Translations under genes and position numbers: made by a program
Shown here: positions 1 through 33,548 of the stretch, one piece after another
How the letters are laid out: the number at the start of each line of letters is the position of its first letter
How positions within the stretch are numbered: the first letter of the stretch is position 1
The notes under the pieces: generated by a model
The model's database searches: none
The model's input: the letters and a program-made list of their open reading frames with translations, nothing else
What the model was told of the DNA's origin: nothing
Virus record (IMG/VR): IMGVR_UViG_3300011338_000865
Span: 1-34,890 of that record
DNA from: a virus
Taxonomy: Duplodnaviria; Caudoviricetes
DNA length: 34,890 nucleotides
Reading direction: 5' to 3' (one strand)

Positions 1-24
1 CGAATCTATTAAAGACTCAGACAA

Positions 25-87
25 ATGATATTCTTTTTCTACCTGTTCATGATCATTCTTCTCTTTATTCTCTTAACTGAAAACTAA
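25..87 (+). CDS. 20-aa hydrophobic micro-protein (MIFFFYLFMIILLFILLTEN)
   Basis: Read manually; below the ORF-track cut-off. ATG overlaps the TGA of an upstream truncated frame (ATGA, 25-28); TAA lies 5 nt before the next ATG. Confidence 0.5.
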   Translation: MIFFFYLFMIILLFILLTEN

Positions 88-92
88 ACCAT

Positions 93-473
93 ATGGAAAA
101 GCAGTTTCACTTCTACTATGATCCAGAAAAAGCAGGTGTTGAACAAATCTGGCTCCATGATAATTACAATCCAGAGGAGGATTACAGTTACGATATCATA
201 GCTCTCTACCAGGAGAAGAAAACAAAGAAGCTGTATTGGGGCATAACACAAGGCTGTTCTTGCAACTCTCCATTTGAAGATGAAACGCTCGACGATCTTA
301 CAGAGCTTACTCCTAAAACAGCACAAGCATTCTTAGATGACTTATCAGATCACTTTGATATGAATACACTTATCAATAACAAGACAGGTGCAAAGGAACT
401 CTCAGAACTATTCCAGAAGCTTACAAAGATAGGAATCCCACTCACACTACCACCAGTAGAAATAGAAGAATAA
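93..473 (+). CDS. hypothetical phage protein (acidic, GCSC motif)
   Basis: 126-aa ORF with LYWGITQGCSCNSPFE; last 18 aa encoded by direct-repeat copy 1. Confidence 0.75.
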   Translation: MEKQFHFYYDPEKAGVEQIWLHDNYNPEEDYSYDIIALYQEKKTKKLYWGITQGCSCNSPFEDETLDDLTELTPKTAQAFLDDLSDHFDMNTLINNKTGAKELSELFQKLTKIGIPLTLPPVEIEE

Positions 474-482
474 ATATCCCGG
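417..482 (+). repeat. 66-bp direct repeat, copy 1
   Basis: AAGCTTACAAAGATAGGAATCCC...GAATAAATATCCCGG; 65/66 identical to 1343-1408. Confidence 0.97.
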
Positions 483-1342
483 CATGAAAGTGTTTTGTGG
501 TGTTGAATTTTTATTTTCTTTGATACCTGATATTATGCGGATCGGAGGTAATAATAGAAATTATGACCAAACAAATTGAGCTTTTTTTCGGTGATAGCAA
601 AGACGTTTTGAAAAAATTACCTAGTAACTCTATTGATCTCATTTTCACGTCACCACCTTATGCAGATCAACGAAGTAAAACTTATGGAGGAATCCATCCT
701 GATAGCTATGTAAAGTGGTTTCTACCTATTTCTAAAGAACTGTTGAGAGTGTTAAAAGTTGATGGGACTTTTATTTTGAATATTAAAGAAAAGGTTGTGG
801 AGGGTGAAAGGAGTACTTATGTGTTAGAACTAATTTTAGAAATGAAAAAACAAGGATGGTTTTGGACAGAAGAATTTATTTGGCACAAAAAGAACTGTTA
901 TCCGGGTAAATGGCCTAATAGATTTCGTGATGCTTGGGAAAGGTTACTGCAATTTAATAAAAGTAAGAAGTTTAACATGTATCAAGAATCGGTGATGGTG
1001 CCTACAGGTGATTGGGCAAAATCACGATTAAAAAATCTTAGCGCAATAGATAAAGTAAGGGATAATTCAAAGGTGGGCAGTGGATTTGGAAAGAATATTT
1101 CAAATTGGATCGGTAGAGATCTGGCTTATCCAACTAATGTTGTGCATCTGGCCACTGAGTGTTCTAACAAATCTCACAGTGCAGCCTTTCCAGAAGCTCT
1201 ACCAGAATGGTTTATTAAGCTATTCACAAAAGAAGGCGATATCGTTTTAGATCCTTTTATGGGTTCTGGTACAACTAATATTATTGCTAATAAAATGCAT
1301 CGAAAAACCATTGGTATTGAAATCTTATACGAGTATTACAAA
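483..1342 (+). mobile_element. inserted methyltransferase cassette (moron-like) between 66-bp direct repeats
   Basis: 860 bp of unique, visibly AT-richer DNA with its own leader (TGnTATTAT 528-536, GGAGGT 544-549). No transposase or integrase inside. Confidence 0.6.
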
Positions 1343-1399
1343 AAGCTTACAAAAATAGGAATCCCACTCACACTACCACCAGTAGAAATAGAAGAATAA
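563..1399 (+). CDS. orphan beta-class N4-cytosine/N6-adenine DNA methyltransferase
   Basis: Motif IV TSPPY near the N-terminus and motif I VLDPFMGSGTT near the C-terminus (beta order); HSAAFP motif; GIEI. Confidence 0.95.
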   Translation: MTKQIELFFGDSKDVLKKLPSNSIDLIFTSPPYADQRSKTYGGIHPDSYVKWFLPISKELLRVLKVDGTFILNIKEKVVEGERSTYVLELILEMKKQGWFWTEEFIWHKKNCYPGKWPNRFRDAWERLLQFNKSKKFNMYQESVMVPTGDWAKSRLKNLSAIDKVRDNSKVGSGFGKNISNWIGRDLAYPTNVVHLATECSNKSHSAAFPEALPEWFIKLFTKEGDIVLDPFMGSGTTNIIANKMHRKTIGIEILYEYYKKLTKIGIPLTLPPVEIEE

Positions 1400-1408
1400 A
1401 TATCCCGG
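1343..1408 (+). repeat. 66-bp direct repeat, copy 2
   Basis: One synonymous difference (AAG/AAA) from copy 1; its last 3 nt (CGG) are the first 3 nt of the tRNA-like gene. Confidence 0.97.
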
Positions 1409-1491
1409 AAGGATAGCACTAACGGTAGTGAGCGCTGGTGGCCAGTAAAAAGATCCAGAGATATCAGGTTCGACTCCTGACCTTCCGACCA
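1406..1491 (+). tRNA. tRNA-Pro-like gene with aberrant anticodon arm (possible pseudo-tRNA)
   Basis: Acceptor CGGAAGG/CCTTCCG + A + CCA; T arm TCAGG-TTCGACT-CCTGA; D-loop with GG. No canonical 7-nt anticodon loop (GCTGG-TGG-CCAGT). Confidence 0.7.
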
Positions 1492-1493
1492 AT

Positions 1494-1581
1494 GGGTGGT
1501 TAACCAAGCGGCAACGGTACCAGGCTGTAAACCTGGCGTCAGCATCTGTCTTCGTAGGTTCGAGTCCTACACCACCCACCA
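1494..1581 (+). tRNA. trnY: tRNA-Tyr(GTA)
   Basis: Acceptor GGGTGGT/ACCACCC; anticodon arm CCAGG-CTGTAAA-CCTGG; long variable arm; T arm GTAGG-TTCGAGT-CCTAC; encoded CCA. Confidence 0.95.
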
Positions 1582-1618
1582 TTACTAACAAACTAAACCC
1601 CAGTTAAGGTAGAAAAGC

Positions 1619-1906
1619 ATGAGACAGACAACCAATAGAATACTTTACACACTCGTAAACCTAGCATCAGGCTCTATAAAAGATGACCTACCAGCTAGAA
1701 GACTCCTAACTGATCTTAGAGTAGACCATACCAAGCTAGAAGACATACTCCAATCTATCCAAGAAGCAGCTAACCATATGCACGGAGAATGGGAAGGAGG
1801 ACACATCAGGTTCTCTTCCCCACAAGACCAGAAAAAGCACGCTACAAAGAGCCACGAACGCATCTGCAAGCTCATAAAAGAAGCACAAAAACTCATAGAT
1901 ACGTAA
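1619..1906 (+). CDS. hypothetical protein
   Basis: 95-aa ORF filling the gap between the tRNAs and the HNH gene. Confidence 0.65.
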   Translation: MRQTTNRILYTLVNLASGSIKDDLPARRLLTDLRVDHTKLEDILQSIQEAANHMHGEWEGGHIRFSSPQDQKKHATKSHERICKLIKEAQKLIDT

Positions 1907-1930
1907 AAATAGCATAAGCATACCATTTTT

Positions 1931-2362
1931 ATGATTAAGAAAGCTACAGCCCTACTTTTAAAGGAAAGAGCTAACTATGCATGTGAGAATAAAAACTGTA
2001 AGAGAAACGATTGGAATTATCATATGCATCACGTTTATTGGAAGAGCCAGTACAGGATGGATGATAGAGATGAGCTGTGGAATCTAGCCTACATTTGCAA
2101 TACATGCCACTATTCTATCCATAACCAAGCAAACATTCGCCTCGATGCTGAATTAAAGGCATTAGCAGACGAGAGAAAGCCAAAGGAGGAGAGGTCTAAG
2201 AAGAAGATAGCTAAGCCAAAGGCAATCATGGAGGCACGCAAGAGCCACTACAAAAGGAACCTAGAGCGGTACAAGTTCCTCAATGGAGGCAAGAGCCCAT
2301 GGAGAGTTTATTATGAACGCTCTAAAGTTATTAAAGGCTTTAACGAAGTAAACAATAGATAG
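1931..2362 (+). CDS. HNH endonuclease
   Basis: CxxxxC...HMHH...NLAYICNTCHYSIH Zn/HNH pattern; directly upstream of terL. Confidence 0.85.
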   Translation: MIKKATALLLKERANYACENKNCKRNDWNYHMHHVYWKSQYRMDDRDELWNLAYICNTCHYSIHNQANIRLDAELKALADERKPKEERSKKKIAKPKAIMEARKSHYKRNLERYKFLNGGKSPWRVYYERSKVIKGFNEVNNR

Positions 2363-2420
2363 TAGACCTCATGTGCAAAATTCAATAAAGTTGTTGTGTA
2401 AAACTTCTTTTGAGTAAAGC

Positions 2421-3791
2421 ATGCAAATAAAGCTAGAGTATCCCATCGGAAAGAACGGAAAGAGAGAACCATTACCAAAACAACAAGATTTCCACAACAG
2501 TTCTGCACATTTTCGCGCGTATGTTGGTGGAGTAGGAAGCGGCAAAACTGTGGCTGGCTGTATAGAGGGAATCAAGAAGGCACTAACCTACCCAGGATCT
2601 ACAGGACTTATAGCAGCTAACACATACCCACAGTTAGAGAAGGCTACCAAGAAGACATTCTTTGAGGCGTGCGATCCTAGGCTTATTAAGCGTAAGAACG
2701 AGTGGGAGGTAGAGTTCTTCAATGGTTCTAAGATCTACTTCATCAACCTTTCTAATCCAGACTCGCTTCGTGGACCATCAGTGCTGTGGATCTACATGGA
2801 CGAAGCAGCAGATGCGTCAGAGTTTTCTTTCCTCACGCTTATTGGGCGCTTGCGTAATGATGCCAAGACTCTCTACCCAGACTCAGCCTTTAGCTTCTTC
2901 CTCACATCAAACCCTAATGGTAAGAACTGGGTGTATCAAAGATTCTTTGCTAAGCCAAGACCAGGTTATTATGGTGTACAGACAACTACATTCGACAACG
3001 CAGCAAACCTACCAGAGAACTATATTGACGGCTTAAGAGAGGCATACTCAGATGACATGGCTAATCGCTTCTTGTATGGCTCGTTTGACGTGTTCATTGG
3101 TCAGATATTCAATGAGTTTGAAGAAAATGTTCATGTTATTCAGCCAAGGGAACTACCAGAGCACTGGTTTAGGTACAGATCAATTGACTTTGGTTGGTCT
3201 CATCCAACGTGTGTGCTGTGGGCAGCTGAAGACTTCAAGGGAAACTTGTACTTTTACCGTGAGTTCCATAAGTCTGAGGTGCCAGCGTACGAGTTAGCTA
3301 GGGTGATCACTGAGCTTTCTGGGCAAGAGAAATACGAATACACAGTTGGTGATACATCAGGTGTTGCAGTAAGCCAGACAGATGGTGAGTCAGTGTATAG
3401 GCAGTTGTATGAATACGGTCACATCCAGGTAACACCAGCATACAAGCAAGACAAGATGGGGCGAATTGACCGTGCCAAGACCATGTTCAAGCACCGTAAG
3501 GTATTCATCTTCAACACATGCACCACGCTTATTGCACAGCTACCGCAGTACCAGTGGGAGAAACCAACCTATGAGCAGGCGCTTTCTAAACAAAGGCCAT
3601 TAAAGGTCAATGATGATTCAATAGACGCATTTTTGTATCTACTCGGAAGCAGACCAGACTCATTTGGATTGCCATCAGAAGAGGTAAAGAAGGAACTTTC
3701 ACCATATGAACGTGCAATGGTCTGTGATCCTGACTATGAGCTTTCACAAATCAACAACAAGAAGAAAAATCAGCATAAAGTTTATTACTAA
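2421..3791 (+). CDS. terL: terminase large subunit
   Basis: Walker A GGVGSGKT, Walker B IYMDEA, coupling motif TSNP, nuclease SIDFG...DDSIDA. Confidence 0.96.
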   Translation: MQIKLEYPIGKNGKREPLPKQQDFHNSSAHFRAYVGGVGSGKTVAGCIEGIKKALTYPGSTGLIAANTYPQLEKATKKTFFEACDPRLIKRKNEWEVEFFNGSKIYFINLSNPDSLRGPSVLWIYMDEAADASEFSFLTLIGRLRNDAKTLYPDSAFSFFLTSNPNGKNWVYQRFFAKPRPGYYGVQTTTFDNAANLPENYIDGLREAYSDDMANRFLYGSFDVFIGQIFNEFEENVHVIQPRELPEHWFRYRSIDFGWSHPTCVLWAAEDFKGNLYFYREFHKSEVPAYELARVITELSGQEKYEYTVGDTSGVAVSQTDGESVYRQLYEYGHIQVTPAYKQDKMGRIDRAKTMFKHRKVFIFNTCTTLIAQLPQYQWEKPTYEQALSKQRPLKVNDDSIDAFLYLLGSRPDSFGLPSEEVKKELSPYERAMVCDPDYELSQINNKKKNQHKVYY

Positions 3792-3795
3792 CAAC

Positions 3796-4050
3796 ATGGA
3801 AACAACACGCAAGTCGCTACGCGGATACATGAAAAAGGGTACAACTTACCATCAAACGTTTGATAGGAGCAGAAAGAAGAAGGCAGATTCATTTCACAAC
3901 GGTTGGCTCTCCGGCCTCAAAAAGAGTTACATTCAAGGGAGGATGTCAAAGGCAGAGTATGAAGATAGGGTTGAGCAGTACAAGTTACTTAGTGGTTCAT
4001 CGCACGCAAAGACATATCGAGTGGCCCAATGGTGGAGTAGAAAGGGCTAA
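3796..4050 (+). CDS. small basic hypothetical protein
   Basis: ATG 4 nt after the terL stop, preferred over the overlapping start at 3706. Confidence 0.6.
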   Translation: METTRKSLRGYMKKGTTYHQTFDRSRKKKADSFHNGWLSGLKKSYIQGRMSKAEYEDRVEQYKLLSGSSHAKTYRVAQWWSRKG

Positions 4051-4055
4051 CATAA

Positions 4056-4068
4056 ATTGAATATAAAG
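4056..4068 (+). promoter_or_regulatory. conserved intergenic motif ATTGAATATARAS (putative late promoter/operator), copy 1
   Basis: ATTGAATATAAAG; AACAAT 16 nt after TTGAAT. Confidence 0.65.
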
Positions 4069-4108
4069 GTATTTGCGAAACAATACCGGTGAAGTAACCA
4101 CACAGGTC

Positions 4109-4420
4109 ATGTCATCAGGTCTTGTTGCATTCGTTTTCATTACCCTTATCACACTGGTAGGTATTTTTTGTTATGTGATTGTTCACTTGCAGAACCTCCA
4201 TTCAAAGGAGAGGGATGATCTGACTAAGAAATTAATGGCCAAGAACCTTACTGAGTACCAGCAAGAGCGTGCTTATGCTGATTATTACGCAGTTAAGAAA
4301 GAGGAGGTTAAACATCAGCCAGTGCCACAGGAATCACAATACCTCACGCTATCAGAGCTTGAGAATGACCCAGTTGCCCTAGCTCAACTCAATGATCACG
4401 TTGAATCTATTACACGTTAA
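4109..4420 (+). CDS. hypothetical protein with N-terminal transmembrane helix
   Basis: GLVAFVFITLITLVGIFCYVIV hydrophobic stretch; ATG 4109 chosen over TTG 4073. Confidence 0.7.
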   Translation: MSSGLVAFVFITLITLVGIFCYVIVHLQNLHSKERDDLTKKLMAKNLTEYQQERAYADYYAVKKEEVKHQPVPQESQYLTLSELENDPVALAQLNDHVESITR

Positions 4421-9313: not shown

Positions 9314-9730
9314 ATGCCAAATTTTTGCATCAAAGAAAGCATGATTCACATGCCAGTATGGGTAGAGAATCCAACAAGCAAGCCACTTACTTGGAGATAC
9401 GATAATGAGTACACAACATTTGATCCTGGAATGTTCCGTGATCTCAATACTAATGAGATGTGGCCAGTGCCATTTGAAATTGCAGTACACTTCCAGAAGT
9501 CATTACCAGAATTAATTATTCATACGGTTAAGCCAGCAGAGAAGAAAGAGGATGAAATCAACGTAGAAGATCTAAAAGGAAAGCCATTAGAAGACATGGA
9601 TATAAAAGAGCTTCGTGCACTTGGTCATTCTATGGGCCTTACTTTCAATCGCAATCTCACAAAGGCAAACATCATTAAAAAGCTTACACCAGTAGAGCAG
9701 CCAAGTGATGAACAACAACCAACAGAATAA
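9314..9730 (+). CDS. hypothetical protein with C-terminal Rho-N/HeH-like helical motif
   Basis: LEDMDIKELRALGHSMGL...TKANIIKKL; start reassigned to the non-overlapping ATG. Confidence 0.65.
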   Translation: MPNFCIKESMIHMPVWVENPTSKPLTWRYDNEYTTFDPGMFRDLNTNEMWPVPFEIAVHFQKSLPELIIHTVKPAEKKEDEINVEDLKGKPLEDMDIKELRALGHSMGLTFNRNLTKANIIKKLTPVEQPSDEQQPTE

Positions 9731-9734
9731 TTGA

Positions 9735-9747
9735 ATTGAATATAGAG
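9735..9747 (+). promoter_or_regulatory. conserved intergenic motif, copy 4
   Basis: ATTGAATATAGAG; AACAAT 17 nt after TTGAAT. Confidence 0.65.
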
Positions 9748-9787
9748 GTGGGCCGTTGAACAATTCTTGTAGCACAAAACAAATCAT

Positions 9788-10456
9788 ATGGATCTTGCTG
9801 TTATGAGAGAACGGCTCACAGACTACCTCAATGATGACTCGACTCAACGTTGGAGTGAAGAGACTCGTGACGCCTACATAAACATTGCGTACAAACGCTT
9901 CTGTAATACTGATAATTGGCCTTTTCGTGAGGCACTCAGCACTTCTATTACTACGGTAGCTGGCACTCAGTCTTACACTTTGCCACAAACAATTAACATG
10001 CCATTAGGCGTGTGGGTTACTAGTATTAAAGAACCAAATAAGCTCGTCCCAGTTACAAGAAAAGAGCGAGACACCTTTACCTTTAGCGGTAATGGGCGTC
10101 CTTTATTTTACTTTCTTTTTGGACCTGACTCATTACAGCTCTATCCAACACCAGATAATGCCTATCCACTGCTTATTGAATACCAAGCAAGAATAGCTGA
10201 CCTGGTGCTTACAACAGACGAACCTATTTTCGACTCTGATTTTCATTATCTGATCCCTTTATTAGCAGCTTCCATTCTTAAGAGAACAAGTGGTGGTAGT
10301 GATGACAAAGAAGCAGATGGTCTTTATCAGGAGTATTTAGCTGGTCTTGAAGATGCAAAATTCAGAATGCTTCCTCGTGAGTTAGATAGACCGAAGGGTG
10401 TTGCCAGTCTCTACGATTTTGGCGGTTACAGTCCACGAATACAATCAAACTTTTAA
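9788..10456 (+). CDS. head-tail adaptor (tail tubular protein A-like)
   Basis: YINIAYKRF...WPF, TVAGTQSYTLP, GRP..Y, LYPTPD and EPIF...FH pattern typical of podophage adaptors. Confidence 0.8.
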   Translation: MDLAVMRERLTDYLNDDSTQRWSEETRDAYINIAYKRFCNTDNWPFREALSTSITTVAGTQSYTLPQTINMPLGVWVTSIKEPNKLVPVTRKERDTFTFSGNGRPLFYFLFGPDSLQLYPTPDNAYPLLIEYQARIADLVLTTDEPIFDSDFHYLIPLLAASILKRTSGGSDDKEADGLYQEYLAGLEDAKFRMLPRELDRPKGVASLYDFGGYSPRIQSNF

Positions 10457-10465
10457 TAAAATATT

Positions 10466-11392
10466 ATGGCTCAAGTTACTACATCAGGTAATCCGTTTGC
10501 TACTCGTCTTCTTGGAGATGGTACTGGCGTTACCTTCACAACAGCAGACCTAGGAGGAACAGCAAACAATTACGAGCTGCGTGTTGTGGGTTCAGCATAT
10601 TTCAATGTTCCTAGTGGTCTCACAATTACATTACAAAGAACATTTCAGAATCCAGGTGATCCAAATGCTGTTTGGACTACCATTACTACTGGCTTAACCA
10701 ACACTGATTACTACTATAACGGACCACTTGTATCTGGTCTTCGCTTCTTACGTACAGCTGGTACAGGAACAGTAGTTGGAACAACATCAGAAAGACCTGG
10801 AATATCAGGAGGATCAACAACCAGTCCTTCAGTTGTTGTCGGTAATGTAGCAAGTGGAGCAACTGACTCAGGCGCTCCAGTAAAAGTTGGTGGTGTCTAC
10901 AATACATCAGCTCCTACGCTTACCAATGGACAACGTGGAGACATGCAATTGGACGTCAACGCGAACCTCAAGACACGCGAACAGTACCAACCAGGCTACG
11001 AAGATAATACGAACGCAAACGCAGCTATTATCGAGAAATTGTTAGCTGGTGTTTCTACGTATTCTCCAACGTTATTCACCAACTTTGGTGCTAATGCAAC
11101 GCTGAACGTCAAAGCAACTGCGGGTAATGTCTATGCTATTCACTGCCAGAATACCAACGCAGCAATTCGTTATATCCAGATCCATAACACAGCTACTACT
11201 CCAGGTGGTGGCGCTGTTCCATTACTTTCATTTGCTATCCCTGCTTCTAGTTCAGTAACTATAACCCACGATCTATTAGTAGCTGGTGGTGTGTACTTCT
11301 CTACAGGTATTGCATTTGCATTCTCTACAACATTAGCAACGTACACAGCAGGAACAGCAGGTGAACAAAGCACAACCATCCTCTTTAAATAG
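10466..11392 (+). CDS. putative virion structural protein (T/G-rich, multi-domain beta)
   Basis: Composition and position in the structural module. Confidence 0.65.
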   Translation: MAQVTTSGNPFATRLLGDGTGVTFTTADLGGTANNYELRVVGSAYFNVPSGLTITLQRTFQNPGDPNAVWTTITTGLTNTDYYYNGPLVSGLRFLRTAGTGTVVGTTSERPGISGGSTTSPSVVVGNVASGATDSGAPVKVGGVYNTSAPTLTNGQRGDMQLDVNANLKTREQYQPGYEDNTNANAAIIEKLLAGVSTYSPTLFTNFGANATLNVKATAGNVYAIHCQNTNAAIRYIQIHNTATTPGGGAVPLLSFAIPASSSVTITHDLLVAGGVYFSTGIAFAFSTTLATYTAGTAGEQSTTILFK

Positions 11393-11422
11393 AGGGTGTT
11401 TTTCATACATTAACTTATCAAT

Positions 11423-11707
11423 ATGCCAAAATGTTTTATCAATTCAGAGCTTGAGCTAGCTAATGGAACCTCACAATACAAGGTGACATTTGAAGCTGAC
11501 GATGGCTACCAAGAGCAACAAGTATATCAATGCACAGAAGCAGAGCTGAAAGAAGCTTTGACTCACTTTAATGATAGCCACCTAGCAACCAAGGCTGCAG
11601 AAAAAGAAGTGAGCACAGTAGTTGCTCCAGAAGTGATTACCGTGAAGCCATCTAAGGAAGCTGTTGCCAACCTCAAAAAGATCGAAGTTGCAGAAGAGAT
11701 TAACTAA
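11423..11707 (+). CDS. hypothetical acidic protein
   Basis: 94-aa ORF in the operon. Confidence 0.65.
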   Translation: MPKCFINSELELANGTSQYKVTFEADDGYQEQQVYQCTEAELKEALTHFNDSHLATKAAEKEVSTVVAPEVITVKPSKEAVANLKKIEVAEEIN

Positions 11708-11715
11708 CGAATCGT

Positions 11716-13149
11716 ATGCCAAGGACAGCAACAACAGGAAGAGTAAGTAGAGCACCAATAGGATTTAACTCATTACTTTGTAATGGTAATTCACCTACGT
11801 CAGCTGTCTCTGGTGGTAACTTAGGGATCAGTGGTAGTAGTGCGTTTTCTTTTGCTGCGTGGGGCTATTTAAGCTCAGTCACTGGCACACAAACGCTAGT
11901 AGCGCTAGGTGATGCAGCTGGTAGTAATACTGGTGTCATTATTCAGTCATTTTCTAATGCTTGGCAGGTACTCATTCAAGGTACAGGAGTGGTACCAGCA
12001 TCAGTATCTATTCAACAAAACCAATTCTATGAAGTTGTTGTTACGTATGCTGGTGGATCAGCTCCAGTCAACATCTTTGTTAATGGGTTAGCTATTAATG
12101 GAAGTGGTGCAGTCACCATGAATCTCACCAATACGACAGTAAAGATGGGTAGAAACTATAGTAGTGCCAACCCACTCTTTGGAGCATTATCTGATGTCCG
12201 CGTTTGGAATGTTGCTTTAACTGCAAACCAAATTGCTACCATGTATGCGACACGGGTAGTTCCAACAACAGGCCTTGTCAGAAGATACAAGCTGAATGAG
12301 GGAACAGGTTCATCTATCGCTGACAGCTCAGTCACTAATGATACTGGTACGGTTACTAATGCACTCTGGTCTAAGAATAATGTGCCGTATGGTCTCAGTA
12401 TTCCACCAGTTGCCACACCAAATCAGATATCATCTTGTCTCTTTTACTTTGAGGCTGATCAGGGTGTCACGCTTGATGGTTCTAACAAAGTGTCTCAATG
12501 GAATGACTTGTCTGGTAATGGGTCACACCTTACCCAGTCAACAGCTGGTCTACGTCCAGGCTATACACTCTCAAGCATCAATGGGCTTCCAAGTGTTAAC
12601 TTAGTAGCTGGTAGTGGCAATGTCATGAACGCTACTACGACCCTCTTTGCTGCCCAACCACATACGCTTGTTGTTGTTGCTAAGTCTTCGAGCACACAAC
12701 CACTAGCACACAGTGGCATTGTAGCCCTTGGCTCAGGAGGAGCAGGAGGAAATACCACATCAATAGGAACAGATAATGCAAGAAAGATTTGGTTTGGCGG
12801 TGCAGGTGATGGCACACCAGCTTATTTTGTTCCTGTTACTGGAACAACATACCTCCTGATAAAAACCTGTGATGGAAGAACGACATCAGGGTTTATTAAC
12901 AATGTGAGTCAAGGATCAGTGAAGCAGTTAGTAGCATTTATCCCATCACCGCTTACAGCAGCTCTTTTTGGACAGTATTCAACAGGTACAGACTCAGGTA
13001 ACTGGAATGTTGTTTCAGTTGCCGCATTCTTAAAAGAGTTAACACCAGCAGAAATGAATGCATTGAGTAGCTACTACAATACCAAGTATGCATTGGGCCT
13101 TTCAATTGGTTCACGTACAGCAACTAGTGGACGAACGCTCATAACCTAA
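11716..13149 (+). CDS. LamG/concanavalin A-like domain virion protein (two domains)
   Basis: FSFAAW...GALSDVRVWNVALTANQI...LNEGTGS, then FYFEAD...VSQWNDLSGNG...INGLPSV. Confidence 0.85.
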   Translation: MPRTATTGRVSRAPIGFNSLLCNGNSPTSAVSGGNLGISGSSAFSFAAWGYLSSVTGTQTLVALGDAAGSNTGVIIQSFSNAWQVLIQGTGVVPASVSIQQNQFYEVVVTYAGGSAPVNIFVNGLAINGSGAVTMNLTNTTVKMGRNYSSANPLFGALSDVRVWNVALTANQIATMYATRVVPTTGLVRRYKLNEGTGSSIADSSVTNDTGTVTNALWSKNNVPYGLSIPPVATPNQISSCLFYFEADQGVTLDGSNKVSQWNDLSGNGSHLTQSTAGLRPGYTLSSINGLPSVNLVAGSGNVMNATTTLFAAQPHTLVVVAKSSSTQPLAHSGIVALGSGGAGGNTTSIGTDNARKIWFGGAGDGTPAYFVPVTGTTYLLIKTCDGRTTSGFINNVSQGSVKQLVAFIPSPLTAALFGQYSTGTDSGNWNVVSVAAFLKELTPAEMNALSSYYNTKYALGLSIGSRTATSGRTLIT

Positions 13150-13156
13150 AAAGATT

Positions 13157-13906
13157 ATGGCAAGAGTAGCTACTACAGGAAGAGTGAAAATGAGAACCAT
13201 TGCTAGTGTTGCAAAGTTTGATGGCACTTCAAGCCAGATTGACCTAGGTACTGGTGGAGCAATTGCAGCAGCAACAGCTACATTTTCTTGTACATGCTAT
13301 TTAAAAAGAGATAAGGCTACCGGTCTTACTGCAATGGTAGGAGATAACAATAATGCTGCACAAAACCACTGGAATTTCCAGATACAAGGACCTAACAGAA
13401 AACTACTTTCAACTATAATTACTACATCAGGTGCAAAAGCATTGATTGGTGTAAGAAATATCCCACAAGGTTTTTGGACACATGCGGCGCTGACATACGA
13501 TGGAGCACTTATTACCTTTTATGTGAATGGTGTTTTTGATACTAGCACGACACATACAGGAACAGTTTTAGCTTCTACTGCCGGCGTTTTAATTGGTACT
13601 GGATCTGCGCCAGTAGGTGGGGCTTACCGTTTTTTTGGAGGCAGCATAGCAGAAGTAAAGTATTGGGATAGAGCTTTATCTGCAACCGAAATAGCAGATC
13701 TCTACTTTGATAATAGGAATGATACCTCTATTCGTACCAACCTCAAAGGAGAATGGTTGCTTAATAGTAATGTGAATGATTCTTCAGGCTTTGGAAATAA
13801 CGGAACTGCAACCGCTATTACTTATGACACGCTTGATGTTCCACTTAAAGAAAGAACTGCTTCTACTGGAAGAACAGGAGTAGTTAACCGTACATTAATC
13901 ACTTAA
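13157..13906 (+). CDS. LamG/concanavalin A-like domain virion protein
   Basis: WTHAALTYDG...FYVNG...GSIAEVKYWDRALSATEI...DSSGFGNNGT. Confidence 0.85.
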   Translation: MARVATTGRVKMRTIASVAKFDGTSSQIDLGTGGAIAAATATFSCTCYLKRDKATGLTAMVGDNNNAAQNHWNFQIQGPNRKLLSTIITTSGAKALIGVRNIPQGFWTHAALTYDGALITFYVNGVFDTSTTHTGTVLASTAGVLIGTGSAPVGGAYRFFGGSIAEVKYWDRALSATEIADLYFDNRNDTSIRTNLKGEWLLNSNVNDSSGFGNNGTATAITYDTLDVPLKERTASTGRTGVVNRTLIT

Positions 13907-23872: not shown

Positions 23873-24184
23873 ATGTCACTCATGTTGCCCCCACGTGTCG
23901 AGTCAGCGTTTGCTCCAAGAAAGCCAATTGTGAATGAGCCATTAGCTCCACGCTCAGAGACACTTACAATTGGTCAGGTAGATGAATATCAGGATGCTAT
24001 TAGCAAGGTTCGTACCATGATCACTATGGCTATTGGGACGCTCAAAGAGCTGAGTGCGCAGGCAAAGGAGAAATATAATGCTCCTGGCATGCGCTACCTC
24101 ATTGGTGAGATTCTTTCATGTCTTGGCAGTGCTAAAAAAGCAACGAGTATTAAACCCGCACAATTTAACTTTATTGAATTATGA
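23873..24184 (+). CDS. hypothetical protein
   Basis: ORF in the lysis cassette, ATGA-coupled to the next gene. Confidence 0.65.
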   Translation: MSLMLPPRVESAFAPRKPIVNEPLAPRSETLTIGQVDEYQDAISKVRTMITMAIGTLKELSAQAKEKYNAPGMRYLIGEILSCLGSAKKATSIKPAQFNFIEL

Positions 24185-24627: not shown

Positions 24628-25164
24628 CTAAGCTCTTGATGTAAGGTACCATTCAAGGAACATGAGCGCATCGGCTTCATCGTCAGTTTCTGCATACGTA
24701 CCATACCGCATCATCACCATTTGCTTACGAAGCATTCTTCTTTCATATGCACTCTTAAAATTGTTTTTCTGTGTTGGACCAACAACTACTTTCCTTACAT
24801 GATTATCTAATACCTCTAGCACAGTTGTATTCCCATGCTCCTCTGCTAACTGTTCAATAACCCCAATCATTTTCCAGTGACGCCTCATAACCTTAAATGC
24901 AAATGTAGGTTGAGGAACAATGATAACTAACTCGTCATGCTTGGTGTCTGGTGCTAAAACATACATCCTCTCTCTAATATGTTCTTTCAATGTGGTAAGG
25001 TAGGTATTCACTGGTAACTCAAAATGACCAACACTTGCTTTCTTTACCATCTTGTCTCTATTCCAAACAACGTCTGTATGTATATTGAATGTCCCTTGTG
25101 CTATGCCAACCTGTGTTCCTAAATCAATTGCTAGTATTCCAACATTTACTTCTTTTAATTTCAT
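24628..25164 (-). CDS. RuvC-like Holliday junction resolvase
   Basis: ILAIDLG strand-1 Asp; VRKVVVG; C-terminal DDEADAL. Confidence 0.75.
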   Translation of the reverse strand: MKLKEVNVGILAIDLGTQVGIAQGTFNIHTDVVWNRDKMVKKASVGHFELPVNTYLTTLKEHIRERMYVLAPDTKHDELVIIVPQPTFAFKVMRRHWKMIGVIEQLAEEHGNTTVLEVLDNHVRKVVVGPTQKNNFKSAYERRMLRKQMVMMRYGTYAETDDEADALMFLEWYLTSRA

Positions 25165-26560: not shown

Positions 26561-27214
26561 ATGACAAACTACAATAATTCTAATCAGCTTTACTTTCCTA
26601 GGGAACCGGGGACAACCAAAGAGGTTTATTTTGTTGACTGCAATCTTTACACTGAAGAGAATAAAATTTCCCAAAAAGGTAGGGCTTACACACATTTTAC
26701 TTACAAGGTTCAGCTGCTTGGTTCTGATCAGCTTTATGATCTTTCAGTTTTTGGAAACCTTCATGAAAAAATCCAGATAACTAGACCAGGGCCACAAGAC
26801 AAGTGCACACTTTTTAAATTACAAACAGCAAGAGGTTTTGCTGATTCTATTCAGTTTCCAGCAATTACCCATGCTCACCGTGTTCAACATGAACAAACAC
26901 AGAGTGTACCAGCTCCCAAATTCGAGGGAGTACTATCGCCCAAAGAACAACAGGGCGCTGTTATAGGCGTATCTTGGGCAATCGGGATACTCCACCCATC
27001 TTTGACTCCAGCGATGGCTACACTCTCAAGTAGCACTGCTGCAGAGCAAGACAAGATAGATGCACGGAACCTTATTGGTACTCGTGTGCAACTGTTGCTC
27101 CAAATTAGAGATCAGGAAGCACAGGCATATATAAAGTCACAGCTCGATAGAGAGGCTCCAGCTCCATTTGAAGAGCCGAAGTCAGGCATTAACTTAAACG
27201 ACATCCCATTTTAA
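26561..27214 (+). CDS. putative single-stranded DNA-binding protein
   Basis: OB-fold-like N-terminus and acidic C-terminal tail ending NDIPF. Confidence 0.55.
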   Translation: MTNYNNSNQLYFPREPGTTKEVYFVDCNLYTEENKISQKGRAYTHFTYKVQLLGSDQLYDLSVFGNLHEKIQITRPGPQDKCTLFKLQTARGFADSIQFPAITHAHRVQHEQTQSVPAPKFEGVLSPKEQQGAVIGVSWAIGILHPSLTPAMATLSSSTAAEQDKIDARNLIGTRVQLLLQIRDQEAQAYIKSQLDREAPAPFEEPKSGINLNDIPF

Positions 27215-30380: not shown

Positions 30381-31271
30381 ATGGCAGCAGATGATGTTGT
30401 TTCAACGATTATTAAAGGTCTTACACCAAAGCTACTAAAGGACAAGAGCTTTATTAAAGACCTAGACTCACTCTCACTCGAAAGGGTGCGCGAAGTAGTT
30501 AATGAAAATGGCATTAAGTCAGTTATTGTGCAACTCGGCAAAGATGGTGAAAAGAAAGATGTTGGTCAGCAACATGAGCGTTTCCCTCAACTTCTTAATG
30601 TTATGGCGAATAAGCTGCCAGTCTACATTGTTGGACCTGCTGGTAGTGGAAAGACTATGGGAGTTGAGCAAGCAGCAAAAGCCCTTGGTATTACGTTCGC
30701 TTGTATGAGTGTCGGTCCAATGACTACTCAATCTCACATCTTTGGCTACATGGATGCTCAGGGTAAATATGTAAGTACAGAGTTCAGAAAACAATATGAG
30801 AATGGTGGTGTATTCCTTTTTGATGAGATCGATGCTGGTAATCCTCAAGTACTAACCTCTATTAACTCTGCTTTATCAAGCGATCAATGTGCGTTTCCTG
30901 ATGGTATGATCAAGAAGCATGCAGGTTTTGTCTGTGCAGCATCAGGTAACACATGGGGTCTTGGTGGATCAGTGGAATATGTTGGCCGTAATGCAATGGA
31001 TGCTGCAACGCTTGACCGTTTTGTTTTCCTTGAATGGCCATATGACTTGAAGTTTGAGAAGCTACTTGCTTCTAATGAGGCTTGGGTAGATAAGATACAA
31101 AAACTCAGAGCTTTGGCTAATGAGAAAGACCTGCGTGTAGTGATATCACCACGTGCGAGTATTAATGGTGGCAAGCTACTTGATGCTGGTTTTACTGAGG
31201 AGGAAGTTTTGAAGATGCTTGTTTACAAAGGTATGGATGAGGCTATGGTCAAGAAGCTTAATGAGAATTAG
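30381..31271 (+). CDS. MoxR/CbbQ/CobS-like AAA+ ATPase
   Basis: Walker A GPAGSGKT, Walker B FLFDEID, sensor ASGNT, Arg finger AATLDRF, ISPR. Confidence 0.9.
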   Translation: MAADDVVSTIIKGLTPKLLKDKSFIKDLDSLSLERVREVVNENGIKSVIVQLGKDGEKKDVGQQHERFPQLLNVMANKLPVYIVGPAGSGKTMGVEQAAKALGITFACMSVGPMTTQSHIFGYMDAQGKYVSTEFRKQYENGGVFLFDEIDAGNPQVLTSINSALSSDQCAFPDGMIKKHAGFVCAASGNTWGLGGSVEYVGRNAMDAATLDRFVFLEWPYDLKFEKLLASNEAWVDKIQKLRALANEKDLRVVISPRASINGGKLLDAGFTEEEVLKMLVYKGMDEAMVKKLNEN

Positions 31272-32139
31272 TATGATAACTAATATTAAACTATTTAACT
31301 TTTTTATTGGCAAAGAAAACGTCCCTCATGAGATGGTAATCAAGAGAAAGCACTTTTTTAGGTCATATTCTGACCTTATTATCTGCGCGGAGAAAGGTGC
31401 TTACTCACCATCTGCCAGGGGTTTTAAGTCTGCTGCTACAAGAAATGATGGTTTTGGAGCTGCTACTTTTGATGAGGCAATCAAGAAGTCATGGTATGGT
31501 GACAAGGAAATACTCAAGTCTGTTCGTGAGTCTAGAGATCAAATAGTAAGGCACCTTAACGACACTACTTATCTACAAGACTGGCAATACTCAGAAAGTG
31601 GAGCTGGCGTTGATGTCGCTAAGTTTGTTACTGGACAGCCTGACTGTATGTTTGATGTACTACCTACAGAAAAGAAGTCAATCACGATTGCAATCAACTT
31701 TGCATACTCTTGGAGTTACGAACACGCTCAAGTTATTGCAGCTGGTGCTGCTGTGTTTATTATTGCAGAGTGGTTTCACCGTAACCGTTACAACGTTAGA
31801 ATTGTAGGTGATGAGGTATGTATACGAAATGGGCTGTACTACTGGCTTAATTTCCCGATCAAAGAGTATCATCAACCATTTGATACAGGGAGAATAGCTT
31901 TTATTCTTGCTCATCCTGCTTTCTTGCGAAAAGTAATATTTTCTGTAAATGATTCTACAGGAGATGAGACAAGAGAATTTTTTGGATTCCATACTGGTTC
32001 TGGCTATGGCAAAGTTTCTACTAGGGTAATGACTAATGCCCAGATCAAATTAAACATGCAAGATCTTTGTAGCAATGCAACATCTATTCAAAAAAGTGTT
32101 GAATTTATCAAAAAAATAATTGCTAAAAAATATGATTGA
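31261..32139 (+). CDS. probable AAA+ partner (degenerate vWA-like); start uncertain
   Basis: Directly follows the ATPase; GAGVDVAKFVTGQPDCM, then a Rossmann-like strand ITIAINFAYSWS. Confidence 0.6.
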   Translation: MRISMITNIKLFNFFIGKENVPHEMVIKRKHFFRSYSDLIICAEKGAYSPSARGFKSAATRNDGFGAATFDEAIKKSWYGDKEILKSVRESRDQIVRHLNDTTYLQDWQYSESGAGVDVAKFVTGQPDCMFDVLPTEKKSITIAINFAYSWSYEHAQVIAAGAAVFIIAEWFHRNRYNVRIVGDEVCIRNGLYYWLNFPIKEYHQPFDTGRIAFILAHPAFLRKVIFSVNDSTGDETREFFGFHTGSGYGKVSTRVMTNAQIKLNMQDLCSNATSIQKSVEFIKKIIAKKYD

Positions 32140-32434
32140 AGGACTAAAAAAAGAGTTTGTTTGTAAATATAAAGATAAAGATGGTGAAGAGTACTTTTTG
32201 GTAATTGGAACTGATGAAGATAATGATTTTGGTTATGCTTACGGTAGAGAGTTGGAGTCAATTTCAAGCGAAGATCTAGATTACATTACCGAGTTCTATG
32301 ATTTTTTTAATTTAAAGGATAAGTTTATGTACTTGCCAGAAGATCAAAGAAAAACTATCGTAGAAGATGTAATGAGGATCTTCTCAGAAGAAATAGAAGC
32401 TTCCTTACAAAGTGCTATAAAAAACTCATCATGA
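32132..32434 (+). CDS. hypothetical acidic protein
   Basis: ORF coupled to both neighbours. Confidence 0.65.
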   Translation: MIEGLKKEFVCKYKDKDGEEYFLVIGTDEDNDFGYAYGRELESISSEDLDYITEFYDFFNLKDKFMYLPEDQRKTIVEDVMRIFSEEIEASLQSAIKNSS

Positions 32435-33063
32435 ATACCTACCACAAAATAAATTCTCTTTATAAGAGAGATCCAAAAACGCATGCATTTATTCCAGAGT
32501 TATCAGATAATGAAGTAGCAGTAATTGGAGGGTGGATTGGAGAAGAAAAGATAGACGGCACTAATATTCGTGTCCACTATGACCCATTCGCAGAAACAGT
32601 TGAATTCGGTGGTCGTACAGACAATGCTCAAATACCTGCTAACTTATTCAAGTTTCTTCAGCAACATTTTACACCAGAACTATTCAAAGAATTTGAGCTG
32701 CCAGTCACTCTCTATGGTGAAGGTGTAGGCAAGAAGATTCAAAAGGATAGTCACTTATACCTACCAGAAGGACAGGATTATGGCTTTATTCTCTTTGACG
32801 TTGCACTAGGAGATTACTTAGTAGATATCCAAATAGTCACTGAGTTGGCAAAACAACTCGGAGTACCAAGGGCAACTATTATTATGGCTGGTTCTTTAGA
32901 TGATGCTGAGAGGCTGGTAAAGATTGGATTTGTCTCTTCGTTCTCTAGTAAAAAGATGGCAGAAGGTTTGGTTATTAAGACCCCAATGCCAGTCTATAAT
33001 AAGTACGGTAAAAGAATTATTACTAAACTCAAGTATGCAGACTTCCACCCTAAAACAAAGTAG
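32431..33063 (+). CDS. ATP-dependent RNA ligase (Rnl2-like nucleotidyltransferase domain)
   Basis: Motif I EKIDGTN, III LYGE, IIIa FILFDV, IV EGLVIK, V TKLK. Confidence 0.85.
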   Translation: MNTYHKINSLYKRDPKTHAFIPELSDNEVAVIGGWIGEEKIDGTNIRVHYDPFAETVEFGGRTDNAQIPANLFKFLQQHFTPELFKEFELPVTLYGEGVGKKIQKDSHLYLPEGQDYGFILFDVALGDYLVDIQIVTELAKQLGVPRATIIMAGSLDDAERLVKIGFVSSFSSKKMAEGLVIKTPMPVYNKYGKRIITKLKYADFHPKTK

Positions 33064-33241
33064 TGCGCACGAGCACGATTGGGAGGAGTTATTCATCCCA
33101 GAGATAAAAACACCAGTCTTCAAGAAATGTAGAAATTGTCCACAGAGATTGGTAATTAACTACGCTGGCTACAAAAGGTGGCGTATGAAGACATGTGGAG
33201 CAGATGCTGTTGCGTTTGCAACTGTTCAATATAAACTATAA
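33035..33241 (+). CDS. small putative Zn-binding protein
   Basis: HEHDW...CRNC; in-frame ATG 33035. Confidence 0.5.
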   Translation: MQTSTLKQSSAHEHDWEELFIPEIKTPVFKKCRNCPQRLVINYAGYKRWRMKTCGADAVAFATVQYKL

Positions 33242-33245
33242 ATAT

Positions 33246-33548
33246 ATGAAGATGAAGCCTAAAACACTAAAGAAAGGGTATGTTCTCATTAAGCAAGAAG
33301 TAGAAGAGCAAGTGACGGAGAGTGGAATTGTTCTTTCTAGTGAAACGATTGAAGACAAACAAAGAAAGATTAGACCTACTGGTTATGGTGAGGTGGTAGC
33401 AATTGCTCCTGATGTTGTCGACTTCAAGGTCGGTGATAGGGTGCTTTACTCAACTTGGGCACCCGTAACTATCACAGAAGATGAAGGAGAAGACAAAATC
33501 GAGTATCATGTGGTTGATCAACACTCTGTGTTGGCACTAATTGAATAA
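33246..33548 (+). CDS. groES: co-chaperonin GroES homologue
   Basis: YVLIK, mobile loop TESGIVL, GEVVAI, KVGDRVLYS, VLALIE. Confidence 0.9.
   Translation: MKMKPKTLKKGYVLIKQEVEEQVTESGIVLSSETIEDKQRKIRPTGYGEVVAIAPDVVDFKVGDRVLYSTWAPVTITEDEGEDKIEYHVVDQHSVLALIE

Follow-up and report, generated by a model that had tools for sequence, protein, structure and literature searches.

An orphan methyltransferase gene inserted with long target duplication into a tailed phage, and still polymorphic

Described systems and the present locus

The closest described events are those for which Furuta et al. 2010 (PMC2853133), in its accessible sections, defines "insertion with long target duplication" of RM genes. 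Those sections also cover orphan M insertions, repeats that span start or stop codons and fusions of M genes by the long-duplication route, and they report direct evidence for amplification and none for release or re-infection. Another relevant case is the hpyII RM locus of Helicobacter pylori (Aras et al. 2001, as cited in the available part of PMC2194252), which has direct repeats and undergoes deletion and horizontal reconstitution. In phages, orphan methyltransferases (MTases) of the 936-type lactococcal group protect against restriction, according to the available part of Murphy et al. 2014 (PMC4190342).

The locus presented here is a known type of event, the insertion of RM genes with long target duplication, found here in a phage and still polymorphic. 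It lies in a window of 34,890 nucleotides (the whole stretch of DNA analysed). This 34.9-kb contig belongs to a tailed phage, is incomplete and carries terminase, P22-like portal and major head genes (Table 1). Like the insertions in the accessible sections of Furuta et al. 2010 (PMC2853133), it combines a duplication longer than 30 bp, no mobility gene, an empty close relative and a repeat spanning a stop codon. Unlike those cases, which come from bacterial genomes, it has a phage as target, comprises M only with the native tail lost, coexists with its empty allele within samples, and is matched by an identical, differently joined copy from the same type of habitat. Because the first screen of that study, as far as the accessible text describes it, needs both R and M, the M-only insert fits the wider class and not the strict screen.

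The hpyII locus, as described in the available part of PMC2194252, differs in being a complete chromosomal RM system of a naturally competent bacterium and not a phage orphan MTase. The 936-type phages resemble our phage in that their orphan MTase sits in a hot spot, flanked by the genes for the small and the large terminase subunit, with an HNH gene next to it; they carry other MTase families with other target sites, and neither target duplication nor empty/filled polymorphism was found in the available part of PMC4190342. In the literature covered, thinly for subscription journals, we found no phage MTase with long target duplication.

Table 1. Coordinates of the relevant features in the window
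Feature	Position	Strand	Remarks
gene93, DUF7574 phage protein	93..473	+	PF24459, E 1e-11; the duplicated target is formed by its last 18 codons and stop
Left copy of 66-bp target duplication	417..482	+	single copy at empty joint 428->1355
Foreign 80-nt leader	483..562	+	identical in L001; promoter/Shine-Dalgarno status unsupported
Orphan beta-class amino-methyltransferase (MTase), 278 aa	563..1399	+	PF01555; residues 1-260 foreign, 261-278 from gene93
Right copy of duplication	1343..1408	+	gives MTase tail, stop codon and tRNA 5' leader
tRNA-like gene	1406..1491	+	7-bp acceptor stem, T arm, CCA; anticodon arm non-canonical
tRNA-Tyr(GTA)	1494..1581	+	tRNA prediction
HNH endonuclease	1931..2362	+	PHROGs E 2.5e-8
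Terminase large subunit	2421..3791	+	two SNP haplotypes here serve as markers
RuvC-like Holliday-junction resolvase, lead only	24628..25164	-	Atlas feature matches at 0.94; RuvC on 13-19% of cluster members

The repeat, the insert and the fused methyltransferase

The initial annotation described a direct repeat enclosing AT-richer DNA, and this is confirmed. The two copies agree at 65/66 positions, with a single G/A mismatch at repeat position 12 (window 428/1354), and the 860 bp between them (483-1342) have a GC content of 34.4% versus 41.5% in the remaining window. When the insert is removed, the longest exact repeat in the window measures 16 nt and none reaches 17 nt; the 66-bp repeat is thus far beyond chance. 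It takes in the end of gene93 with its stop codon, crosses a short spacer and reaches 3 nt into the tRNA-like gene, and it is in frame with both gene93 and the MTase, which share their last 18 residues. This tail is present in 4/4 cluster members and in P0250, an 83%-identical homologue of gene93, and the 95-97% identical phage contig L039 has one gene93 tail, no MTase and a tRNA-Asp after gene93. Among 120 listed MTase homologues, the phage-type tail occurs once, namely in the window's own protein. Relatives at 93% identity do have a different C-terminus, a point that the initial annotation had proposed to check: they continue with YYKMVSEKL where the window MTase takes the gene93 tail. Since the shared tail is that of gene93, the MTase relatives have another and L039 is single-tailed, the duplicated DNA is the phage target and the DNA that came in is the MTase. 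Judged by the sequences of L039 and P0250, the empty state is evidently ancestral and the repeat phage-derived. An empty allele built in silico behaves as foreseen in the initial annotation, restoring gene93 and leaving a 926-bp circle that keeps the 278-aa ORF intact.

The MTase itself scores 155 bits on PF01555 (cut-off 26.7), contains the SPPY motif and has no adjoining nuclease, in agreement with its first reading as an orphan SPPY methyltransferase. S30-P-P-Y33 and D230-PFMGSG are invariant in a 55-row alignment. With SPPY before DPFMGSG and a PF01555 domain it is like the MTases of PmeII-family RM systems, to which it is 72-93% identical, and it differs from them by the missing nuclease and the replaced last 18 residues. 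Among solved structures, the N4-cytosine enzyme M.PvuII is its closest match by sequence, and the structure model likewise has N4-cytosine enzymes as its two top fold matches. Conserved columns of the alignment end at residue 262; in the model (mean pLDDT 67.6) a helix at 256-264 is kept across the fusion point at 261 and the tail beyond it is of low confidence. It is plausible that the fused MTase would be active.

A nuclease of PmeII type, a family name taken from plasmid annotation, lies downstream of the MTase relatives in 78 of 80 GTDB loci (the best 80 of 590, from 29 of 64 parts scanned), and the two nuclease-less loci end 539 and 151 nt past the match. That the gene belongs to a family forming part of cellular RM pairs is thereby borne out, and together with the tail replacement this means that capture left the nuclease and the native tail behind. 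The target site is less accessible. GGWCC is weakly under-represented in the phage (15 versus 23.6 expected, z -1.8), tying as the most depleted interrupted palindrome, and motif depletion gave nothing significant in the window phage or in the second phage discussed below. For PmeII itself, the available part of PMC8112702 gives an m5C enzyme as the cognate MTase, so the target site is not readable from the family name.

The leader had been credited with an extended -10 and a Shine-Dalgarno sequence of its own. Both motifs are there, and their significance did not hold up: TGnTATTAT lies at 528-536, the pattern TGNTATWAT is found 5 times in the window versus 3.8 expected, and a promoter scan gave 2 sites versus 4.5 in shuffles. 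GGAGGT is 13 nt upstream of the MTase ATG, and the usual Shine-Dalgarno-to-start spacing is 5-10 nt. The GGAGGT stretch may be a remnant of coding sequence, and expression of the MTase may simply occur by read-through of the phage operon. Apart from L001, the other loci compared contain no match of at least 16 nt to the 80-nt leader.

The insert is far below 20 kb and has one main ORF and no further mobile-element gene; its 66-bp duplication exceeds the 30-bp criterion for insertions with long target duplication. Two more conventional elements were considered and rejected. Firstly, an integrase-driven element at a tRNA att site does not fit, as the repeat covers the first 3 nt of the tRNA-like gene and not its 3' end, and there is no integrase match. 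Secondly, an insertion sequence or transposon does not fit a 66-bp duplication and an insert free of transposase. The statement that recombinases and transposases are absent stands for the 24 window proteins scanned, of which none matches an integrase or transposase family; it is weakened by the RuvC-like resolvase and by the incompleteness of the contig. A search for a phage single-strand annealing protein led to the ORF at 26561-27214, which has no family match. Of the 201 inverted repeats, the 25 longest include no pair with its arms at the two ends of the insert. Concerning an integron gene cassette, the comparison covered the repeat, which is phage coding sequence and not attC. Eight of the 80 GTDB loci (L053, L055, L119 and 5 more) have the RM pair or its surroundings between 38-348-bp repeats of 75-97% identity. 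Three of these resemble attC arrays by eye, and multi-copy repeats surround some of the bacterial relatives. Other cargo at the repeat was sought in viral scans, which gave only the contig of L001, and in a metagenome scan, which gave only L039.

The repeat does end 3 nt into a tRNA-like gene; the label of tRNA-Pro given to this gene is uncertain. ARAGORN calls it only at a lowered threshold, either as Pro-TGG with a mismatched stem or as Gly-GCC with a 9-nt insert; it is missing from the Rfam listing. Its acceptor stem is perfect, and in its anticodon arm either 16 nt separate CTGG from CCAG or the loop has 3 nt. The 8 runs examined list no differences in this gene. It could be a decoy, a tRNA with an intron-like insert or a decaying tRNA. 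The slot after the gene93 stop (window 474-1597) has exchangeable tRNA sets: the tRNA-like gene and tRNA-Tyr in the window, tRNA-Asp alone in L039 (reverse strand, about 1840-1915), and another allele of 291 nt in run X11 at 22x. Elsewhere in the window, upstream of the small terminase gene (30381-33548), there are genes for an AAA ATPase and its partner, an RNA-ligase-like and a GroES-like protein.

Filled and empty alleles in phage populations

Parts of window 1-3000 occur in 20 public runs, of which 8 were examined, all as contigs. The initial annotation had proposed to look for an empty allele, and its exact joint (428->1355, skipping exactly 926 bases) is printed in three of them (X5, X8 and X9), which thus provide the single-copy empty site of close relatives. 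In run X11 the insert is uncovered at 40-55x flank depth and two different alleles follow the gene93 stop. Contigs over both junctions occur in another four runs (X1, X3, X4 and X18, from at least three studies, one of them possibly the source of the window), with the insert at 0.27-0.61 of flank depth, depth being a rough measure and not a copy number. Populations therefore look mixed in 4/8 runs by coverage of insert versus flank, as had been expected. A 301-bp piece of the MTase is present at 2.2x in X9.

A second assembly, L001, reproduces the junctions. Its insert shows 0 differences from that of the window, 42/3743 positions differ overall (406-4148), and its own two repeats are identical. 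L001 shares 18 listed SNPs at 2381-2969, in the terminase region, with the empty contig of X5; the other SNP type is found in the window, in X1 and in the empty-bearing X9. Filled and empty alleles hence occur on both backgrounds. They coexist, the insert being present in part of the phage population, and ordinary allelic recombination of filled with empty phages accounts for the mixing of haplotypes. The L001 contig starts exactly 77 nt before the left junction (window 406), which we interpret as a filled/empty fork in an assembly graph with 77-letter words. A loose end of at least 255 letters leaves the insert leader at 521 in run X18; it may represent further cargo or, with a likeness of 85%, a low-complexity match that arose by chance.

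The same data bear on an assembly chimera of phage and co-occurring donor, or of phage and free circle. Such an artefact might be suspected because X5 and X8 contain an identical MTase core within other DNA, and because the junction contigs carry only 30 letters on the repeat side, under the 31-letter bridging rule. Yet the window and L001 have the same junctions with different flanking SNPs, contigs over both junctions come from four runs of at least three studies, and the right copy has two linked alleles, so we regard a chimera as hardly credible.

These two alleles concern position 12 of the repeat. In the insert-linked right copy the window has A there, L001 has G and X18 has both (7.2x and 6.3x), and node boundaries imply that left copies carry both bases too; the repeat therefore exchanges sequence with gene93 tails. 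This raises the question of whether the cassette cycles actively, as the initial annotation had suggested, i.e. leaves as a 926-bp circle, returns via the 66-bp homology and perhaps amplifies, forming a recombinase-free reversible switch of methylation. The mixed depth in 4/8 runs, the two bases at position 12, the ORF kept in the circle and the depth of the repeat node above neighbouring flows in X1 (30.7) and X18 (55.2) would all be compatible with such cycling, and amplification of repeat-flanked RM genes is reported in bacteria in the accessible sections of Furuta et al. 2010 (PMC2853133). However, no circle, tandem joint or re-insertion appears in the contigs of the 8 runs, although in graphs of 31-letter words a circle and an integrated copy look identical, and in X3 the repeat-node depth falls under the flows, which marks this measure as noisy. 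Empty genomes need not stem from pop-out, since emptiness is also the ancestral condition. The exchange at position 12 fits ordinary recombination of filled with empty phages just as well as cycling via a circle, since allelic recombination yields the same haplotypes. Moreover, the insert is uncovered in X11 at the flank depth given above, and X5 and X8 are without the insert leader. We consider active cycling unlikely and prefer a single capture whose alleles are mixed by ordinary recombination.

Sister copy, donor and the probable route of capture

In X5 and X8, two runs of one study where the window phage is empty, positions 562-1343 are nevertheless present with 0 differences and other neighbours. 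Upstream of this sister copy the loose letters give an in-frame start with seven extra codons, and downstream the native MVSEKL continues. A graph fork at 629 leads to 30 printed letters that match exactly a gene start in the record of a second phage (L124/G001; L124 3001-3030). The site in that record is without an MTase, and an exact microhomology of 7 nt links it to window 623-629. An earlier reading of the fork in X5 as a nuclease gene or integron cassette was dropped once it matched the phage gene. What ties the sister copy to the second phage are loose ends of 30 letters, and two other loose-end motifs were not found in IMG/VR or in G001, a record estimated as 25% complete. The majority form of the sister copy keeps only the first 68 nt of the core. 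Our reading is that a relative of the second phage may have taken up the same gene through junctions of its own, and that the gene body would since have been lost from most copies, the depths in X5 being 57x versus 25.7x.

The second phage encodes RecT and, from the reading of its ORFs, probably has a tail module of the tape-measure type. The name of its contig bears the same IMG sample number as L001. Between G001 9400-11900 and window 11716-13906 and about 23936-24151, tail-fibre-like and holin-like genes are common, with up to 62% translated identity; to judge from these sequences, the sharing by two phages of different morphotype suggests a common host. Shine-Dalgarno motifs are nearly absent from both (1/29 ORFs in the window, 1/28 in G001), which we take as a hint, not a decisive one, to a host among Bacteroidota or Patescibacteria. 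The tail-fibre-like protein was found in 0/401 genomes of the phylum of G004, and no taxon names appear among homologues of the major capsid protein or terminase.

With two phages holding the same gene, it has to be asked whether it came from another phage or prophage of the same host instead of the chromosome, or passed from the ancestral allele to the second phage. The unchanged core 562-1343 in other DNA, the exact 30-nt match at the fork to a phage sharing tail-fibre-like and holin-like genes with ours, and the apparent ending of both copies at or near the same AAGCT might be read in this way. On the other hand, nesting is absent: the window copy has the 80-nt leader missing in its sister, and the sister has four native codons (MVSE) missing in the window. 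This favours separate capture from one donor; the second-phage link is moreover 30 letters long and the two further loose-end motifs were not located. Transfer between phages is thus quite improbable in our opinion. As to the donor, the start pattern of the MTase occurs in 0 JGI/ENA metagenome records, the best GTDB match reaches 82% (29 of 64 parts scanned), the best plasmid match 72.5% DNA identity (14 records), and INPHARED gave only distant MTase and tRNA-Tyr matches.

We therefore return to capture from a bacterium. Probably, the 860-bp MTase fragment was captured once from a bacterial PmeII-type RM locus by target-duplicating illegitimate end-joining, and protects phage DNA from the matching enzyme. 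The join might have arisen by a template switch during replication, or two broken copies of the phage genome might have been joined via the donor fragment; the nearby HNH endonuclease is a possible source of breaks. Either way, the joined strand would exit the phage at 482, where the tRNA-like hairpin starts, run through the donor and re-enter 66 bp upstream at 417. In the copy with the native tail, AAGCT, the first five bases of the repeat, recurs in frame 12 nt past the junction, as seen in one 30-letter loose end from two runs of one study. This suggests joining at the AAGCT microhomology followed by a 12-nt in-frame slip, possibly between A runs; the alternative is a direct junction with 1 nt of homology. 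With the stop codon inside the duplication, neither gene93 nor the tRNA leader nor the MTase frame is broken, and the MTase gains a terminus. The product would have survived for this reason, with no phage function lost. The allele would then spread when filled and empty phages infect the same cell and recombine in the ordinary way, and it could disappear again when one repeat recombines with the other; host strains with and without the cognate nuclease would hold it at intermediate frequency.

The long-duplication route is not the norm of this MTase family in phages, because a near-identical flanking repeat is present in 0/33 other viral loci (their best repeats are 77 bp at 78% and 38 bp at 87%); a nuclease is nearby in 7/33. 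A more daring view is that a host MTase passes unchanged among unrelated phages as a removable anti-restriction patch, that recombinase-free 66-bp pop-out and pop-in of a promoter-independent circle tunes methylation, and that the second phage, having captured the gene, now deletes it via its own microhomologies. We find this combination doubtful.

Taken together, the capture is real, recent and still polymorphic. How phages take up host defence genes without homology or integrase is mostly deduced from insertions that are old and fixed. For this locus, public data contain the states before and after the event, its two junctions, a differently joined sister copy and mixed populations. The case bears on the long-standing proposal that repeat-flanked RM genes are released and re-inserted, and it suggests that anti-restriction methylases can persist at intermediate frequency in wild phage populations.
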